This document shows, piece after piece, positions 7,054-29,990 of a DNA stretch of 32,000 nt. The notes below the pieces were generated by a model that saw only the letters and a program-made list of their open reading frames with translations, was not told the DNA's origin and made no database searches. Both the position numbers and the translations under genes were made by a program. This stretch comes from Tannockella kyphosi (GTDB lineage Bacteria; Bacillota_I; Bacilli_A; Erysipelotrichales; Coprobacillaceae), in contig NZ_CP088239.1 in assembly GCF_021054785.1 (NCBI RefSeq), positions 1,140,001-1,172,000 of the forward strand, written 5' to 3'. Each line of letters opens with the position of its first letter. The stretch's first letter is position 1.

Positions 7054-9663
7054 TTACAAAATGTTTTTCAAAGCTTGCAAAATTACATTTTTTGTATCGT
7101 TATAAACACAACCACCTTGTGCTAAATCTGGCTTTCCACCACCTCGTCCATCTACCAAAGCATTTATATTTTTCACAATATCACCAGCTTTTTTACCTGT
7201 TGCAACAATATCTTTGGTAACAGCAACAAAATAAGAACATTTATCTTCTTGTTTTGCTACTAAAATTACAACACCACTTTCTAATTGATCACGATAATCA
7301 AACGCTAATTGTTTTGCTTTCCCAGCTTCCATTTCTTCTTCTACCAATAATACCTTTAGTCCATTGATATCTAAAACATCATTTGCTTTACTTGCAGCAA
7401 CTAAACTATTCATTTTAGAAGTAAGTGCTTCTAATTCTTTTTTCGTATCATGTAATTCTTTTACAATAGATTCTACTTTTGTAACTACATCATTTTGATT
7501 TTTTAATTTTAACGTATCCGCAATCATTAATACTGTATTCTTCTTAGCAATCAATGCATCATATGCTTTTTTACCAGTAACTGCTTCAATACGTCTTGTA
7601 CCACTACCAATACTTTCTTCTGTTTCAATTTTAAATAATCCAATACTAGCACTATTCGTTACATGGCAACCACCACATAATTCCACAGAATAATCACCAA
7701 CACTAACTACACGAACAACATCTCCATACTTCTCACCAAATAAAGCCATCGCACCTTTTTCAATTGCTTCCTCTTGACTCATTGATTCAATAGTAACTAA
7801 TTCTCCTTTGAAAATTTCTTCATTCACTTTTTCTTCAATCATTGTTAATTGTTCATCACTTATTTTTTCAAAATGTGTAAAGTCAAAACGTAAACGCTCA
7901 TCATCCACATAAGAACCCGCTTGGTGAACATGTGTTCCTAATGTAACTTGTAATGCTTTTTGTAAAATATGCGTAGCTGTATGATTTGCAGTAATGCGAC
8001 TACGTCTAGCTACATCTACTTCTAATGTGAATTCATCTCCTAATTGCACTGTTCCAGATTCAACTGTTACACAATGTAAATGTTGTTTATTTGGAGCACT
8101 CAATACATTTACTACTGTTAGTTTTGTTTGTTCATTATACATTACACCAGTATCATTACATTGACCACCCATCGTTGCATAGAAAGTAGTAGCATCTAAA
8201 ATAACTTGTCCTTCTCCTTCTAATACTTCTACATTTTGGCCTTCTTTAAATAAACCAATAACTTTACCAGTACTAATCTTAGGATCATAATCAAAACTTG
8301 AACATTCCATAAATTCCATTAAATCAATATTTTGACTAGCCATTGATTCTACATCACTTCTTGAACTACGAGAACGAACTTGTTGAATTTTCAATTCTTC
8401 TCTAAATCCTTTTTCATCCACTTCTTTATTTGATTCTTCTGCAATTTCTAACGTTAATTCAAAAGGAAAACCATAAGTATCATATAACTTAAATACATCT
8501 TTCCCTTCAATTATACCACTTGTGTTTTTAGCAATAATATCACCTAATAACTTTTCTCCATTACTTAATGTTTTATGGAAAGCTTCTTCTTCTCTTTTTA
8601 CTAATTTAGTTACTAAATCAACTTGTTCCGGTAAATTTGTATAATAGTCCTTCATAATATCACATACTACTTGTACTAACTCATACATAAATGCTTGTTC
8701 AATTCCAATTTGTTTTCCAAAACGAACAGCACGACGTAAAATTCGACGTAACACATATCCTCTACCGGCATTATCAAATAATGCTCCATCACTTAAAGCA
8801 AAGGTAACTGTACGAATATGATCTGCAATAACACGATAAGCCATCTTATTATCACTATATGCACAATTTGCTTTTGCTTCTACTGCATGAATAATTGGTA
8901 AAAAGAAATCAGTATCAAAATTAGTTTCCCCTTGTTGAATAATACTTACTAAACGTTCTAATCCCATTCCAGTATCTATATTCTTTTGTGGTAATTCTTG
9001 ATATTCTTCTCTAGCAACACCATCTTTAGAATTATATTGAGAAAATACTAAATTCCATATTTCTACATAACGATCATTTTCTAACTCTTCATAAAATAAC
9101 TTTGTACCTAGTCCTTCCAAATCATAGAAATCTCCACGATCATAGAATATTTCAGAATCAGGTCCACAAGGTCCTTCTCCAATTTCCCAAAAGTTTCCAG
9201 GAGTTTTTAACATATGTGTTGGATCGATTCCTTTTTTATTAACCCAATAATCATATGCAAAATCATCTCCATCATGGACTGTAATATATAATTTATCTTT
9301 TTCAAAACCAATCCATTTTTCATCTGTTAAAAATTCCCAAGCAAAATCAATTGCTTCTTCTTTAAAATAATCTCCTATTGAAAAGTTTCCTAACATTTCA
9401 AAAAAAGTATGATGTCTTGCCGTTTTACCAACATTTTCAATATCATTTGTACGTATTGATTTTTGAGCATTGGTAATTCTAGGATTTTCAGGTGTAATTG
9501 AACCATCAAAATATTTTTTAATTGCTGCTACTCCTGCATTAATCCATAATAAAGTAGGATCATCATTTGGTATTAAAGAATGACTAGGCTCTACTTTATG
9601 TCCTTTACTTTCAAAGTAATCTAAGAACATTTGTCTTACTTGATTTCCACTTAACTGTTTCAT
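7054..9663 (-). CDS. alaS: Alanine--tRNA ligase
   Basis: 869 aa. It has class II aaRS AlaRS motifs (FFEMLGNFSIGDYFK, editing-domain HTATHILQ, CGGCHV) and a C-terminal DHHA1-like domain. The RBS is AGGAGG. Confidence 0.98.
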   Translation of the reverse strand: MKQLSGNQVRQMFLDYFESKGHKVEPSHSLIPNDDPTLLWINAGVAAIKKYFDGSITPENPRITNAQKSIRTNDIENVGKTARHHTFFEMLGNFSIGDYFKEEAIDFAWEFLTDEKWIGFEKDKLYITVHDGDDFAYDYWVNKKGIDPTHMLKTPGNFWEIGEGPCGPDSEIFYDRGDFYDLEGLGTKLFYEELENDRYVEIWNLVFSQYNSKDGVAREEYQELPQKNIDTGMGLERLVSIIQQGETNFDTDFFLPIIHAVEAKANCAYSDNKMAYRVIADHIRTVTFALSDGALFDNAGRGYVLRRILRRAVRFGKQIGIEQAFMYELVQVVCDIMKDYYTNLPEQVDLVTKLVKREEEAFHKTLSNGEKLLGDIIAKNTSGIIEGKDVFKLYDTYGFPFELTLEIAEESNKEVDEKGFREELKIQQVRSRSSRSDVESMASQNIDLMEFMECSSFDYDPKISTGKVIGLFKEGQNVEVLEGEGQVILDATTFYATMGGQCNDTGVMYNEQTKLTVVNVLSAPNKQHLHCVTVESGTVQLGDEFTLEVDVARRSRITANHTATHILQKALQVTLGTHVHQAGSYVDDERLRFDFTHFEKISDEQLTMIEEKVNEEIFKGELVTIESMSQEEAIEKGAMALFGEKYGDVVRVVSVGDYSVELCGGCHVTNSASIGLFKIETEESIGSGTRRIEAVTGKKAYDALIAKKNTVLMIADTLKLKNQNDVVTKVESIVKELHDTKKELEALTSKMNSLVAASKANDVLDINGLKVLLVEEEMEAGKAKQLAFDYRDQLESGVVILVAKQEDKCSYFVAVTKDIVATGKKAGDIVKNINALVDGRGGGKPDLAQGGCVYNDTKNVILQALKNIL

Positions 9664-9678: not shown

Positions 9679-9850
9679 TATAAAAAGTCGTCCTATTTCT
9701 AGGAACGACTAATCGCGGTACCATCCTAGTTCATGTATAAATACATGCCCCTCAATTCACAATAACGGTGTGTCACCGGTAAGTTTTACTTACACTCGAA
9801 AGTAGCTTTCTCTATTCTATCATAAACATTCCCACCAACCATGTTCTCTC
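9679..9850 (-). promoter_or_regulatory. T-box riboswitch leader (Ala specifier GCU) with terminator/antiterminator
   Basis: On the minus strand the elements are an AGAGAG box, then a specifier loop GAAA-GCU-A (GCU is the rc of 9804-9806). Next comes the T-box motif GGAUGGUACCGCG (rc of about 9714-9726). The terminator is AGTCGTTCCTAGAAATAGGACGACT plus TTTTTAT (9679-9710), directly upstream of the alaS RBS. Confidence 0.85.
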
Positions 9851-9856
9851 TAAAAA

Positions 9857-9884
9857 AATATAAATAGATACTTATCTTTGTCAA
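9857..9884 (-). promoter_or_regulatory. Sigma-A type promoter for the T-box-alaS transcript
   Basis: On the minus strand there is TTGACA (rc of 9879-9884), a 16-17 nt spacer and then TATATT/ATATTT. It lies just upstream of the T-box stem I. Confidence 0.5.
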
Positions 9885-9941
9885 CGATTTAAAGAAATTA
9901 TACACAAAAACCATGTATATTACAATAACAATACTAAAAAA

Positions 9942-16017: not shown

Positions 16018-16044
16018 GAAAAAACGGAATTAAAATTCCGTTTT
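16018..16044 (-). terminator. Rho-independent (palindromic, potentially bidirectional) terminator after the ubiquitin-domain gene
   Basis: On the minus strand the sequence reads AACGGAAT-TTTA-ATTCCGTT followed by TTTTTCG. It begins about 12 nt after the stop codon. Confidence 0.7.
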
Positions 16045-16055
16045 CAATAATAAGG

Positions 16056-17288
16056 TTATACTCTTTGTCTTCTTTTTATATCAAAACATACATAAATAAC
16101 ACTAATAGTACCTAATGTCATATAGATTAATAAAGAACTATGATCACCAGTATCAACAGTACCCTCTACATCTACTTCATCACTAGCTATAAGTTCTTCC
16201 ACCATAAAAGTAGTGGATGCCTCACCAGTAGTAGAAACAATAGCTAACGTATGTTCACCTAATGATAGATTAAGAATATACTCATTACTAAGAGTAACTA
16301 TAGTACTCCCTTGTTCTAATGATAGATATTGTTCATCTACGATTTGTCCATCTACTAATGTATGTAAATAACTACTAAAAGAAGCATCACTAGTAAATGA
16401 AATCGTATCACTCTTCATTACAGTTTGATTATTTCCTAAAATAATAGAATGATTACCTTCTTCATTTACTACCACAGAAATAGTAACTAAATCTTCAAAT
16501 ATACTACTTGTATATTCTAGAACACCATCTTGATTATCATCGATACCTATTATACTAGCATCAATGACAACTTCTTCTATTTGATCACTTGCATAAAAGA
16601 TACTTCCATCTATTTCTCCTTGTCCAGAAGCAATCGTAAAAACAATATTCTCATAATCAAAATAATCATTTAAATCGATACTTTCCCCTGCACTTACCAT
16701 TAATTCTTGATATTCTAATAAAGAAGAATCGATTGGTAAAATAGAAAAATCTGTTAACACCTCACAACTAGATATTACCGTTCCTTGATAATACTCATCA
16801 GCAACACTTAGAAGTGTATAATCCCCAACATAGTTTGGTACACCTTGAACATAGCAACTATCATCTTGCCCTTGTAACTTATAAGAATATTCTATTTTAA
16901 TAGTTACATCATCACCTATATAATTTTCTTCTTCATAAAAGACAGTAGGTTCTACTGTTTGACCATAATACGTATCCTCTTGTATTACTTCTATATCCAT
17001 TTTACACAAGATATGCAAAGTAGAATCTTTTTGAATACTATAATCTTGTAAAGTATTTCCATCTTCTAATAATTTTCCAGCAAAATATAAAAGCTGATTT
17101 TCTGGTAATATACCTTCTTTATCTTCTATTTTTGCTTTCACATCTTCAATACGATCTGTTGCTTCTACTTCTAATGTAACATGTTTTCCACTGAGTGTTT
17201 TTACAAATATTTGCATTGCATAAGAATCAATGCTAGTACTTACCATCATCATGGCAAATACACTTATTATAATTATTATTTTTTTCAT
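16056..17288 (-). CDS. Secreted, C-terminally anchored surface protein with an N-terminal eukaryotic-type ubiquitin domain
   Basis: - Signal peptide: [24 protein letters not shown].
- Ubiquitin domain: [72 protein letters not shown] follows directly. It aligns without gaps to ubiquitin, with 50 of the first 68 residues identical by hand count.
- Body: about 280 aa of acidic, beta-rich, adhesin-like sequence.
- C-terminus: TVDTGD, a 20-aa hydrophobic stretch, then KRRQRV.
- Start: the ORF-track start at 17306 is a TTG. I prefer the ATG at 17288 (MKK...). Confidence 0.85.
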
Positions 17289-17304
17289 TTCATTTACCTT
17301 TACC

Positions 17305-17333
17305 AAAAAGCCCTTTTCTAAGAAAAGAGCTTT
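17305..17333 (-). terminator. Rho-independent terminator after purB (end of the pur operon)
   Basis: On the minus strand the sequence reads GCTCTTTTC-TTA-GAAAAGGGC followed by TTTTTGG. It lies in the 49-nt gap between the purB stop and the ubiquitin-domain gene start. Confidence 0.6.
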
Positions 17334-17337
17334 CTAT

Positions 17338-22478: not shown

Positions 22479-23729
22479 TTATATTAATCCAATATCATGA
22501 CGGTAATATTTGCCAACAAAATCAATAGTTTCTGCTTTTTTATAAACTTTCTCACGAACTTCTTCTAATGAAGAACCAGTTGCTAAAATATTTAAAACAC
22601 GGCCTCCATTTGTTACTAATTTACCATTATCCATATTTGTTCCAGCATGGAATATAATTGTATCTTGGTCATCTTGGTAATTTGTGATTTCAATACCTTT
22701 TTGATAATCACCAGGATATCCTCCACTTGATAATACTAAACAAGCAACATGTTCATTTGACCATTTCACTTCTACTTCATCTAATGTTTTGTTTGCACAC
22801 GCAACCATTATATCATATAAATCACTTTCTAAACGCATTAAAATTGATTGTGTTTCAGGATCTCCAAAACGAACATTAAATTCTAATACTTTTGCTTCAT
22901 TATTTTCAATCATTAACCCTATAAAAATAACTCCACGATAATCCATATTATCATCCACTAATCCTTGCATAAAAGGATCTAACACAGTTTCTTTAATAAC
23001 TTCATCCATACTATCTGGTAAAAAAGGATTAGGAGAAACAGTCCCCATACCTCCTGTATTTGGACCCATATTTCCATCAAAAATTTGTTTATGATCTTTT
23101 GAACTTACCATTGGTACAATTGTTTTTCCATCAACAAAACATAATAAAGAACACTCAAAACCAGTTAAAAACTCTTCTAATACTACTTTTGAACCTGCTC
23201 CATCTAAAATACCATCTATTAACATCTCTTTTAATGTTACAATAGCGTCTTCTTTGTTTTCAACAATAACTACCCCTTTACCAGCAGCTAAACCATCTGC
23301 TTTAATAACTAATGGATAACTATAGTTATCTAATGCTTTGATAGCATGATCATAATCAGTTACTTCATCATACTTAGCAGTAGGAATATGGTGACGAATC
23401 ATAAAATCTTTTGAAAAAGCTTTACTTCCTTCTAAAGTAGCAGCATGTTGTGTTGGTCCAAAAGCAACTAAGTTATTTGCTTCTAATAAATCTGCTAACC
23501 CATTACATAATGGTACCTCTGGTCCAATTACTGTTAAATCAATTTTATGTTTTAAAGCAAAATCTAGAATAAATTGATTATCTTCTACTGATCCTGGTAC
23601 ACATGTTCCCATACTACTAATCCCAGGGTTACCTGGAATAGCATATATTTCATTTACTTTTTGACTTTGGTTTAATTTATAAGCAATCGCATGTTCACGA
23701 CCACCACTTCCAATTATTAATACTTTCAT
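22479..23729 (-). CDS. purD: Phosphoribosylamine--glycine ligase
   Basis: The true start is MKVLIIGSGGREHAIAYK (ATG at 23727-23729) with a GGAG RBS 6 nt upstream. The 45-codon N-terminal extension in the ORF track overlaps purH and has no similarity. An ATP-grasp domain is present. Confidence 0.93.
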   Translation of the reverse strand: MKVLIIGSGGREHAIAYKLNQSQKVNEIYAIPGNPGISSMGTCVPGSVEDNQFILDFALKHKIDLTVIGPEVPLCNGLADLLEANNLVAFGPTQHAATLEGSKAFSKDFMIRHHIPTAKYDEVTDYDHAIKALDNYSYPLVIKADGLAAGKGVVIVENKEDAIVTLKEMLIDGILDGAGSKVVLEEFLTGFECSLLCFVDGKTIVPMVSSKDHKQIFDGNMGPNTGGMGTVSPNPFLPDSMDEVIKETVLDPFMQGLVDDNMDYRGVIFIGLMIENNEAKVLEFNVRFGDPETQSILMRLESDLYDIMVACANKTLDEVEVKWSNEHVACLVLSSGGYPGDYQKGIEITNYQDDQDTIIFHAGTNMDNGKLVTNGGRVLNILATGSSLEEVREKVYKKAETIDFVGKYYRHDIGLI

Positions 23730-23739
23730 CGTTTTTCTC

Positions 23740-25263
23740 CTAATGTCTAAAATGACGATATCCTGTAAACACCATTGGTAAATCATGTTCATTACAATAA
23801 TCAATAGAATCTTGATCACGAACAGAACCACCTGGTTGAATAATAGCACTAACTCCTGCTTCATGTGCTACTTTAGCACAATCATTGAATGGGAAGAAGG
23901 CATCACTTGCAAGTACTGAATTTGTAAAGTCTTTATCTGGATTGTTATGGATTGCATTTTCTAAAGCCCAAATACGTGATGTTTGACCACCACCAATCGC
24001 TAATGTTACACCATCTTTTACAATACAAATAGCATTTGATTTAACAAATTTAACAACACGCATACCAAATTCCATATCACTTAATTGTGCTTCATTTGGT
24101 TCTTTATTTGTTACAACATTCATTTCTTGAATCATTTGATCATTAATATCTTGAACTAATACTTTTCCTTCTAAATACTTAATATCATATTTTGCTTCAC
24201 GTACTGATAAATCTTTTAATTTTAAAATACGTAAATTTTTCTTTTTCTTTAATACTTCTAACCCTGCTTCACTAAAGCTAGGTGCTGCAACGATTTCTAA
24301 GAATGTTTTATTCATTTCGATTGCTGTTGCTTCGTCTATTTCATAATTTACAGCTACAATACCACCAAAGATAGATTGAGGATCTGCATTATACGCTTTC
24401 ATATAAGAATCATAACCTGTTTTATCAATAGCTACACCACAAGGTGTAGAATGTTTAATTGCTGCTGTTACTACTTGTCCATCAAACTCACGAACCAAAG
24501 CAACTGCCCCATATAAATCATTTACATTATTAAAAGAAATTTCTTTTCCATGTAATTGATCATAATCTAATAAAGTATGTTGTACAAAAGGATCTACATA
24601 ATTACTAGCATTTTGATGAGAGTTTTCACCATAACGCAAAGAGTCTGTTTTCTTTAATGTTAAGTTTAATGTTTCAGGATAGCTATCTCCTACAACACCT
24701 GCAAAATAACGAGAAATAATAGCATCATAACTACCAGTAGCACTAAATGCTTTATAAGCTAAATTTAAACGGAATTCATAAGTATCTTTACTATCTTTTA
24801 GAACTTCTATTACATCATTGTAATCACTTGGATCCGTTACAATTAATACATCTTTAAAGTTTTTTGCAGCCGAACGAATCATTGAAGGTCCACCAATATC
24901 AATATTTTCAATCATATCTTCCATCGGTTTACCAGCTTTTAAAGCTTTTTCAAACTCATATAAATTAACACACACTAAATCAATTGCTTCAATCCCATGT
25001 TCTTTCACCGTTTCAACATGACTAGCAAGATCACGACGATACAACAATCCCCCATGAATTAATGGGTGTAATGTTTTTACACGACCATCTAACATTTCTG
25101 GAAAATTGGTTACTTCATCAATTGATTTACAAGCAATCCCATGTTCTACTAATTGAGCCATAGTTCCTCCAGTAGAAATAATTTCAAAATCTAAAGCAAC
25201 TAACTCCTTAGCAAACTCAACAATTCCTGCTTTATTAGTAACACTAATTAACGCTCTTTTCAT
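23740..25263 (-). CDS. purH: Bifunctional AICAR transformylase / IMP cyclohydrolase
   Basis: 507 aa. The N-terminus is MGS-like (ALISVTNKAGIVEFAKEL, STGGT). The C-terminal AICARFT domain ends in RHFRH. Confidence 0.97.
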   Translation of the reverse strand: MKRALISVTNKAGIVEFAKELVALDFEIISTGGTMAQLVEHGIACKSIDEVTNFPEMLDGRVKTLHPLIHGGLLYRRDLASHVETVKEHGIEAIDLVCVNLYEFEKALKAGKPMEDMIENIDIGGPSMIRSAAKNFKDVLIVTDPSDYNDVIEVLKDSKDTYEFRLNLAYKAFSATGSYDAIISRYFAGVVGDSYPETLNLTLKKTDSLRYGENSHQNASNYVDPFVQHTLLDYDQLHGKEISFNNVNDLYGAVALVREFDGQVVTAAIKHSTPCGVAIDKTGYDSYMKAYNADPQSIFGGIVAVNYEIDEATAIEMNKTFLEIVAAPSFSEAGLEVLKKKKNLRILKLKDLSVREAKYDIKYLEGKVLVQDINDQMIQEMNVVTNKEPNEAQLSDMEFGMRVVKFVKSNAICIVKDGVTLAIGGGQTSRIWALENAIHNNPDKDFTNSVLASDAFFPFNDCAKVAHEAGVSAIIQPGGSVRDQDSIDYCNEHDLPMVFTGYRHFRH

Positions 25264-29880: not shown

Positions 29881-29986
29881 AAAAAAACAAAAAAGAGCCT
29901 GATCATCCGGACTCTTGCCCAGACGGTCGGCTCACTATGATTATACTCCCTGTGGTCAATTCCACTTCCGTCAGTTGTATAACTAC
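29881..29986 (-). promoter_or_regulatory. ZTP (pfl-motif) riboswitch with expression-platform terminator, leader of the fhs-pur operon
   Basis: - P1: UUAUAC pairs with GUAUAA.
- J1/2: ACUGACGGAA.
- P2: GUGG-AAUUGA-CCAC, followed by GGGAG.
- 3' subdomain: after a linker comes GCCGACCGUCUGGGCA.
- Pseudoknot: GACGG pairs with CCGUC. The G-to-A change relative to the consensus GGCGG:CCGCC is compensated.
- Terminator: AAGAGUC...GGCUCUU plus UUUUUGUUUUUUU follows, and its 5' arm abuts the pseudoknot strand. Confidence 0.8.
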
Positions 29987-29990
29987 AAAG

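Follow-up and report, generated by a model that had tools for sequence, protein, structure and literature searches.

Ubiquitin is treated as a hallmark of eukaryotes. The captured ubiquitins described from bacteria, BfUbb and BoUbb, are about 61–63% identical to human ubiquitin, carry a Sec signal peptide, lack the C-terminal Gly-Gly and occur in gut bacteria (PMC3352274, PMC11467351). As a free protein of some 76 amino acids, BfUbb is released in vesicles or into the supernatant, and the closest DNA match reported for it is an entomopoxvirus ubiquitin gene (PMC3352274, PMC11467351). Its toxicity depends on a C-terminal cysteine/disulfide (PMC11467351). The literature that we searched yielded only these two proteins, both free; BfUbb was rightly named as the known precedent in the initial annotation of the locus described here. 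This locus lies in Tannockella kyphosi, an Erysipelotrichales bacterium from fish hindgut, on a stretch of 32,000 nucleotides (contig NZ_CP088239.1, positions 1,140,001 to 1,172,000; hereafter the window), and encodes a protein that begins with ubiquitin. Like BfUbb and BoUbb, the window protein contains a eukaryote-derived ubiquitin with a signal peptide directly ahead of it, lacks Gly-Gly and belongs to a gut bacterium. Unlike them, its ubiquitin is the N-terminal domain of an anchor-bearing Gram-positive protein of 386 amino acids in its mature form, is of the parabasalid type and has no conserved cysteine. As a whole, the observations are best explained, with a probability that we place slightly above even, by a parabasalid ubiquitin that is displayed on the bacterial surface as a non-covalent mimic and is a member of a large class.

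The ubiquitin match is far beyond chance. The domain matched the Pfam family PF00240 with E = 1e-23 and 83.3 bits (cut-off 25.4) over profile positions 1–71 of 72, and BLASTP against human ubiquitin gave 50/73 identities (E = 6e-37). By sequence, 387 chains in the Protein Data Bank (PDB) matched the domain at E ≤ 0.01, and the 60 among the matches listed were all ubiquitin or ubiquitin-derived. An AlphaFold2 model of the mature N-terminus, reliable for the ubiquitin domain only, reached a predicted local distance difference test score (pLDDT) of 80–96 across this domain (residues 1–73). Foldseek superposed it on solved PDB ubiquitins with a root-mean-square deviation of 0.4–0.8 Å over 72–74 columns and target-normalised TM scores of 0.93–0.99; a full-length model built from three sequences had a pLDDT of 45 and was not used for fold searches. 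The segment had been called near-canonical ubiquitin in the initial annotation, and two of the checks suggested there, PF00240 and structural superposition, were positive. The sequence quoted for residues 31–106 of the open reading frame (ORF) read from its TTG start was exact, as were the hand counts of 50 identities in the first 68 positions and 50/76 overall. Of the span given for the domain (16998–17216) the end was right, but the start was not, since it trimmed the last three of the 76 residues.

The C-terminus departs from that of a conjugatable modifier. The Leu-Arg-Gly-Gly tail is missing and C-K-M-D-I-E stands in its place, the E1-contact arginines are substituted (R42L and R72K), and the domain also carries I44Y and V70L, while Met1 and all seven lysines (K6, 11, 27, 29, 33, 48 and 63) are retained. 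With G75 and G76 missing and both R42 and R72 substituted, activation and conjugation are precluded; the domain is ubiquitin by descent and fold and not a conjugatable modifier. It runs into the following stalk without Gly-Gly and is a permanent fusion, peptide-bonded to the stalk. In eukaryotic fusion precursors (polyubiquitin, ubiquitin-eL40, ubiquitin-eS31), ubiquitin is likewise N-terminal in a longer polypeptide, and one family of bacterial homologues described below (L012/L172) even keeps RLRGG with more protein behind it. The eukaryotic precursors, however, are cytosolic, and deubiquitinases cleave them behind Gly76, whereas the window protein is exported and has no Gly-Gly. Prokaryotic ubiquitin-like proteins (ThiS, MoaD, Pup and those associated with Bil or CBASS) share the beta-grasp fold, Pup excepted, but are cytoplasmic, distant in sequence and encoded next to E1/E2/JAB-type (or ligase) genes. 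The window domain, in contrast, is 66–76% identical to ubiquitin, is exported and has purine-synthesis and housekeeping genes as neighbours.

Within residues 1–72, parabasalid ubiquitin differs from the canonical protein by T12H, S20T, T22R, N25D, R54N, S57Q, N60S and E64D. All eight of these diagnostic residues were found in the window domain as well as in its homologues P0002 and P0102. Over the same residues the window domain shared 58/72 identities with parabasalid and 50/72 with human ubiquitin, and the homologue from a related species (P0102) shared 64/72 and 56/72, respectively. The diagnostic states are rare: at least six of them occurred in just 4/429 eukaryote-like ubiquitin units among the best database matches, and the units with all eight came from Tritrichomonas foetus, a Coptotermes (termite) record and two JGI metagenome records. 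In a collection of 5.8 billion proteins, the closest ubiquitins belonged to polyubiquitins from Tritrichomonas foetus and from symbionts of termite guts. An identical ubiquitin was encoded by native polyubiquitin and ubiquitin-eL40 genes on metagenome contigs of 62–310 kb, which are taken to come from termite guts. The best eL40-fusion match of the ubiquitin-eL40 on these contigs was PDB chain 5xy3_m (270 bits versus about 200), from a structure that we take to be the Trichomonas vaginalis ribosome. Because all eight diagnostic residues are present, identity to the parabasalid protein is higher and the states are rare among eukaryote-like units, the ubiquitin appears to descend from a parabasalid or a close relative of parabasalids. 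That the domain has an authentic ubiquitin fold and parabasalid-protist ancestry is a conclusion in which we place high confidence.

The transfer from eukaryote to bacterium proposed in the initial annotation is thereby borne out as to origin by the eight parabasalid residues, but not necessarily as a direct step, since the Tannockella lineage may have acquired the ubiquitin from another bacterium and not straight from a protist. The motif LPENQLL at ubiquitin positions 37–43 (window 17088–17108) recurs in two proteobacterial autotransporters (L031 and L168), and a third homologue (L034) has the variant LPENQRL at the same positions. This derived motif, common to unrelated anchors and phyla, hints that the ubiquitin module has been exchanged between bacteria. 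Viral ubiquitins (entomopoxvirus, baculovirus, giant viruses) resemble the window domain in being horizontally captured, near-canonical ubiquitins outside cellular eukaryotes. They differ from it in that the best 80 viral-contig matches were 64–70% identical to the window domain, lay mostly on contigs named as giant-virus metagenome-assembled genomes (GVMAG) and had at most two of the eight parabasalid residues; giant-virus copies did not exceed this number. Carriage of the gut-type ubiquitin by a phage or virus was considered and rejected, as the scan of viral contigs returned the canonical type only, at no more than 70% identity and mostly on contigs with a giant-virus label. On plasmids, the sole copy found was of the canonical type, on a plasmid of Ruminococcus albus 7. 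Synonymous sites were uninformative about the recency of the transfer, parabasalid ubiquitin genes being mutually saturated.

The ORF on the minus strand (16056–17306) is real and would encode 416 amino acids if the TTG at 17306 were used. The ATG at 17288 is the likelier start, and the resulting product is 100% identical to the NCBI entry 'ubiquitin-like protein [Tannockella kyphosi]'. Cleavage after S-Y-A would make Met1 of ubiquitin the mature N-terminus. The mature protein contains 310 residues beyond the ubiquitin domain (Table 1). These residues had no direct match in Pfam, even at E ≤ 10, or in NCBIfam, and a word-indexed search with them returned just the two near-identical proteins. 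An exhaustive profile-free search with the same 310 residues gave 3011 representatives at E ≤ 0.001, the best 150 of which were listed. Residues 104–187 matched repeats of giant surface proteins (nine stretches in P0122, 11 in P0123 with E = 1.8e-20, and nine in P0144), which Pfam names MBG_3 (11 and 10 stretches, E = 1.6e-21 and 3.2e-19). This indirect link through the repeats of relatives, with no direct Pfam match, suggests that residues 104–187 form an MBG-like domain.

Most of the best 150 relatives matched residues 281–365, usually at their own C-termini, where the matching stretch is CBM_X2 or Shr-like_HID in Pfam and is followed by an LPXTG-type anchor. Modules of this kind stand ahead of the anchor in thousands of surface proteins of Firmicutes. 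The tails of about 130–150 relatives consist of xPxTGD, a hydrophobic stretch and a K/R tail, with the variants SPQTGD, VPDTGD and IDTGD, and some of them match the Gram_pos_anchor and LPXTG models. The window protein combines an N-terminal signal peptide with a C-terminal hydrophobic helix and the basic tail KRRQRV, as is typical of sortase substrates. In a full-length relative from human gut (L236) a sortase gene is immediately adjacent (PF04203, E = 1.7e-9); five loci have sortase-like ORFs, recognised by a TLxTC motif, no more than a few kb away from the ubiquitin gene, and L236 is the Pfam-confirmed one among them. The most plausible reading of the protein is that of a putative surface fibre, anchored by sortase, whose distal N-terminal end carries ubiquitin, and we regard surface display through a sortase-type anchor as likely. 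The stalk domains and the sortase-type C-terminal signal agree with the earlier description of a secreted surface protein with a signal peptide. Known sortase-anchored surface proteins with MBG/Ig stalks have the same signal peptide, adhesin-type beta stalk, X2-like module, xPxTGD-type signal, helix and basic tail; in contrast, their tips are bacterial adhesin, enzyme or binding modules, and the motif of the window protein is the variant VDTGD. The literature searched held no report of a sortase-anchored surface protein tipped with a eukaryotic ubiquitin.

Table 1. Features of the ubiquitin gene and its surroundings (window coordinates; residue numbers are those used in the text)
Feature	Coordinates	Strand	Remarks
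Gene for the putative ubiquitin-tipped surface protein	16056..17288	(-)	410 aa; NCBI entry 100% identical
Sec signal peptide, 24 aa	17217..17288	(-)	MKK, hydrophobic core, S-Y-A; predicted signal-peptidase I cut between SYA and MQ
Ubiquitin domain, 76 aa, parabasalid type	16989..17216	(-)	ends LCKMDIE; R42L, I44Y, R72K
MBG-like adhesin repeat domain, residues 104-187	16728..16979	(-)	matches repeats in giant surface proteins
Middle beta-rich stalk, residues 188-280	16449..16727	(-)	AlphaFold2 beta strands, pLDDT <55
X2 / Shr-HID-like Ig-type module, residues 281-365	16194..16448	(-)	relatives match CBM_X2, Shr-like_HID
Acidic spacer and sortase-type sorting signal	16059..16193	(-)	VDTGD, helix, basic tail
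VDTGD motif	16143-16157	(-)	sorting signal; reads TVDTGD with the preceding residue
Hydrophobic helix, 17 residues	16083-16133	(-)	sorting signal
Basic tail KRRQRV	16059-16076	(-)	sorting signal
Intrinsic terminator	16020..16045	(-)	11-bp stem and T-run just past the stop codon
Strain-variable mosaic patch, codons 69-140	16869..17084	(-)	comparison with metagenome allele L001

When one genome per bacterial or archaeal species was scanned with a ubiquitin alignment, at least 600 stretches were found, of which at least 387 were confirmed. Architectures were counted in the best 80 loci of these species-representative genomes. A signal peptide with a small-x-small site abutted MQIFVKTL in 63/80, whereas most of the others were polyubiquitin or ubiquitin without a signal peptide; these often lie on very short contigs and resemble contamination from eukaryotes. 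In two loci (L026 and L028) ubiquitin is internal and follows a signal peptide and about 100 residues. Together with metagenome contigs, the design of signal peptide, ubiquitin and surface anchor was represented by at least 117 distinct proteins, many from human gut. Among the 117, 36 ended in a C-terminal helix and basic tail, 21 had barrel-like ends and seven were free ubiquitins; other tails look, by sequence alone, like those of the type IX secretion system (T9SS) or like SLH or cell-wall-binding repeats. Pfam domains were counted in 62 species-genome proteins plus the window protein (n = 63). The autotransporter beta-domain (PF03797) was present in 10/63, InlB-type repeats (Flg_new_2) in 6/63, CBM_X2 in 5/63, GLUG in 4/63, and MBG_2, SLH and IPTL-CTERM (exosortase-type) in 3/63 each. 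In many autotransporters ubiquitin is the sole passenger, the protein consisting of a signal peptide, ubiquitin and a beta-barrel of about 290 amino acids.

Ubiquitin type follows habitat. The parabasalid type was found in gut bacteria of several phyla (Firmicutes, gut Alphaproteobacteria, Bacteroidales, Mycoplasmatota), the hosts being fish, mammals and birds. Carriers of the canonical type are mostly environmental (Pseudomonas danubii, on the chromosome; Dyella; Burkholderiales; Verrucomicrobia), and a canonical-type ubiquitin also occurs in rumen Ruminococcus albus 7 (L248, pRUMAL01). Cultured carriers comprise T. kyphosi, Frisingicoccus caecimuris DSM 28559 (L028), Ruminococcus albus 7, Pseudomonas danubii (L076), Dyella humi (L083) and Paracidovorax valerianellae (L062). 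F. caecimuris DSM 28559 was isolated from mouse, and its protein has the X2 module of the window protein and a VPQTGD signal. Free secreted ubiquitins are encoded in two Dyella loci (L072 and L083), and the Dyella humi copy ends at Leu73.

Two further groups were noted. In human-gut Proteobacteria of the CAG:495 type (L012, L172, L175, L179, L183, L186), a signal peptide and ubiquitin precede an autotransporter barrel. The ubiquitin of these loci, L012 and L172 included, is 76/76 identical to the parabasalid protein and keeps RLRGG, so that it resembles a cleavable ubiquitin precursor; its synonymous sites are saturated relative to the presumed termite-gut parabasalid genes. Since Gly-Gly is retained, cleavage by a deubiquitinase could liberate native ubiquitin from the surface of these bacteria. 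In metagenome-assembled genomes of rumen Clostridia (L063, L068, L075), GLUG/MBG surface proteins of 1000–1700 amino acids open with a third flavour of ubiquitin (SIDAVK...GHTLADY), which may come from a rumen eukaryote; the donor search for this rumen type was uninformative, being swamped by generic di-ubiquitin fragments. A conserved partner (E1/E2, deubiquitinase, immunity protein or peptidyl-prolyl isomerase (PPIase)) was also considered and rejected, as clustering of neighbouring ORFs revealed none common across taxa. The largest cluster of neighbouring ORFs (30 loci) looks like an antisense ORF of ubiquitin.

The literature searched, which perhaps did not cover subscription-only papers, contained no description of a fused or surface-anchored bacterial ubiquitin. 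Captured bacterial ubiquitins were previously known only as free Bacteroides toxins, and the fused surface class, which we could not find described, is apparently new. The configuration had been put forward as undescribed, and this stands given that only free BfUbb and BoUbb were recovered; as a one-off it does not stand, for it belongs to a large class in many phyla.

We propose the following model. Signal peptidase would cut exactly before Met1 and sortase would join the C-terminus to the cell wall, so that ubiquitin would project from the outer end of a surface fibre and its native N-terminus would be free. Because conjugation is impossible, the displayed ubiquitin would act as a ligand, that is, as a non-covalent mimic, and its targets would be ubiquitin-recognising proteins of gut eukaryotes, either protists or the host. 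The function suggested by these features would be mimicry at the cell surface. That this mimicry is directed at eukaryotes is proposed tentatively, because the type of ubiquitin matches the habitat and protist-specific residues are retained. Since Met1 is free, the seven lysines are kept and the donor-side R42, R72 and Gly-Gly are lost, conservation fits a displayed acceptor or reader-bait ubiquitin, for example in grazing, protist attachment or host-cell contact. A broader and more speculative proposal, which we consider doubtful, is that bacteria of many phyla have time and again acquired ubiquitin from the eukaryotes around them, kept it nearly unchanged and displayed it by any available anchor as a general device of inter-kingdom mimicry; the anchors would be sortase, autotransporter, SLH and IPTL-CTERM/exosortase types and probably T9SS tails.

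Several points speak against a surface-displayed mimic. VDTGD is a variant motif, no anchor model of Pfam or NCBIfam matches the window protein directly, and no sortase gene lies within the 32-kb window. The commonest ubiquitin-binding surface is altered in the window protein (I44Y, V70L), and V70 is retained in just 53% of the sequences of the class. No partner gene was common across taxa when 1192 neighbouring ORFs of 126 loci were clustered. To our knowledge, ubiquitin readers are cytosolic, whereas this protein is extracellular. Finally, BfUbb, the one characterised bacterial ubiquitin in this respect, acts on bacteria and not on eukaryotes (PMC11467351).

The pattern of selection bears on whether the ubiquitin is recognised as such. 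Among 40 distinct bacterial parabasalid-type ubiquitins, the median proportion of nonsynonymous differences (pN) was 0.14 and that of synonymous differences (pS) 0.89, which is saturated, corresponding to a ratio of nonsynonymous to synonymous substitution rates (dN/dS) of about 0.08; the GC content of the domain tracked that of the host locus (r = 0.91). These genes are old, ameliorated and constrained. Between the window gene and that of the related species, dN/dS was 0.14 in ubiquitin, 0.21 in the X2 module, 0.41 in the first stalk domain and 0.89 in the middle stalk, the fastest-evolving region. Nearly all exposed residues are kept in the 40 copies, including L8, H68, the helix face and the D58 region, and the seven lysines and Met1 are conserved at 85–100%. 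Variation centres on positions 31, 37–42, 49 and 70–76, that is, on the tail and the E1-contact face. This pattern argues for recognition of ubiquitin as ubiquitin, in a non-conjugating form, over a mere stable cap. As such a cap, ubiquitin would serve as a stable, fast-folding and protease-resistant N-terminal domain that aids or protects the fibre and has no signalling meaning. The stability of ubiquitin is well established, the domain sits at the extreme N-terminus ahead of unrelated C-terminal domains and anchors, and the next domain, MBG, belongs to adhesin stalks. A scaffold, however, should let its surface drift, yet exposed residues (e.g., K6, E16, E18, T20, D21, K27, K33, E34, N54, Q57, D58, S60, K63, D64, T66 and H68) are 90–100% conserved despite saturated synonymous sites and the low dN/dS. 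Moreover, ubiquitin is the only passenger in many autotransporters, some copies are free, and some bacterial copies are still 76/76 identical to the protist protein. We therefore judge a purely structural role improbable.

Strain comparison revealed a mosaic patch. Relative to metagenome allele L001 (700–950), codons 69–140 of the window gene showed dS 0.49, dN 0.36 and a two-codon indel, compared with dS 0.012 in the rest. The patch of about 215 bp covers ubiquitin residues 45–76 and the first 40 residues of the stalk, and looks like recombination with a divergent allele. A diversity-generating retroelement was considered as its cause and rejected, as the changes are not adenine-specific, an indel is present and dS is raised to 0.49. 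A strain-variable patch at the ubiquitin C-terminus would also fit an arms race, as expected if the protein were an interbacterial weapon or Trojan horse like BfUbb and BoUbb. Its ubiquitin, displayed or released by proteolysis, would then be recognised by the uptake system of a competitor and would poison, e.g., a periplasmic PPIase. Among bacterial ubiquitins only BfUbb and BoUbb have been characterised, and they start in the same way, with a signal peptide and a ubiquitin without Gly-Gly; they kill related strains via the ButCD SusCD transporter and a PPIase (PMC11467351; PMC5705921), and free secreted ubiquitins such as those of Dyella (L072, L083) occur in the class. On the other hand, the window protein is fused and anchored instead of being a free protein of 76 amino acids, and the C-terminal Cys/disulfide required by BfUbb is not conserved, Cys71 being confined to the window allele and lacking in the 91%-identical P0002 and the 51%-identical P0102. 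The window gene has no immunity-like or toxin gene beside it, and the known import route is Bacteroides-specific. A weapon of this kind seems to us a rather unlikely explanation.

Modulation or camouflage towards a vertebrate host, in which the ubiquitin on the cell surface would bind host receptors that recognise extracellular ubiquitin or would profit from immune tolerance towards a self-like antigen, is in our estimate very improbable. BfUbb shows antigenic cross-reactivity with ubiquitin, and molecular mimicry by this protein has been discussed (PMC6194340; PMC3352274), and parabasalid-type copies do occur in gut bacteria of fish, mammals and birds. The gut copies, however, retain protist-specific and not host residues, and soil and water bacteria without a vertebrate host (Pseudomonas danubii, Dyella, Burkholderiales) share the architecture.

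The gene is a resident of its genome. Six independent metagenome contigs from near-identical strains carry a 91%-identical allele in the order purB, gene, SDH_alpha, ROK, with flanking DNA 99–100% identical to the window across 5 kb. A 51%-identical orthologue lies between the same two genes in the related species, where SDH_alpha is 76% and the C-terminus of PurB 95% identical. The GC content at third codon positions (GC3) is 0.105 in the ubiquitin domain, 0.116 in the rest of the gene and 0.118 in purB, and is thus ameliorated to host values. Eukaryotic contamination had been argued against in the initial annotation, where host-like codon usage was also stated; the same junctions in independent assemblies and a related species, together with GC3 (0.105 versus 0.116–0.118), uphold both points and speak against a chimera as well. 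An artefact, whether contaminating eukaryotic DNA or a chimeric join between such DNA and bacterial sequence, is effectively refuted by the shared junctions and the host-like GC3: polyubiquitin on short contigs of some isolate assemblies is clearly contamination (e.g., L060, L064, L074, L079, L084), but here both junctions were recovered identically in six independent metagenome contigs and a second species, signal peptide and stalk are in frame with ubiquitin, and the gene's contig, from a cultured isolate, is 2.26 Mb long.

The neighbouring genes (purB, purL, purD, purH, purN, SDH_alpha, ROK, mnmA, recD2 and alaS) are all housekeeping genes on one strand, and no E1, E2, deubiquitinase or mobile-element genes were found in the surroundings of the window gene. 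Past its terminator follow SDH_alpha, ROK, mnmA, recD2 and a T-box leader with alaS; the T-box leader (126 bits) spans 9698–9893 (-) upstream of the alanyl-tRNA synthetase gene (7054–9663). A ZMP/ZTP riboswitch (56 bits) at 29910–29988 (-) precedes the gene for formate-tetrahydrofolate ligase (fhs) and the purine operon. The operon has the same orientation and extends as far as purB, immediately ahead of the ubiquitin gene, which may be read through from this purine-/folate-stress-controlled operon. In the spacer that separates the purB stop from the ubiquitin gene, some 18 nt ahead of the ATG, a 15-bp hairpin with a U-run (17296–17336 (-), -15.7 kcal/mol, z = -3.8) could be a partial terminator or a structure of the 5′-untranslated region; it was missing from the output of the consensus terminator scan. 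The mechanically called purD ORF (22479–23864 (-)) overlaps the end of purH (23740–25263) by 125 nt; its true start is probably further downstream, the GARS_N domain beginning at residue 46. GC skew is strongly negative throughout the window (1–32000; -0.15 to -0.42) and nearly all genes are on the minus strand, so that a single replichore seems to contain the whole window, its genes pointing in the direction of replication. Its GC content is even, at about 0.31, with no island signal near the ubiquitin gene.

A captured ubiquitin is thus used differently here than in the described cases, as a permanent tip domain of what is probably a Gram-positive surface protein, and the accepted picture is too narrow. 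The class to which it belongs is large, has a clean gut-protist donor signature and is subject to strong purifying selection. Should protists or the host be what the displayed ubiquitin acts on, this would represent an unrecognised channel of interaction between bacteria and eukaryotes in guts; should it act on bacteria, the BfUbb paradigm would be greatly widened.

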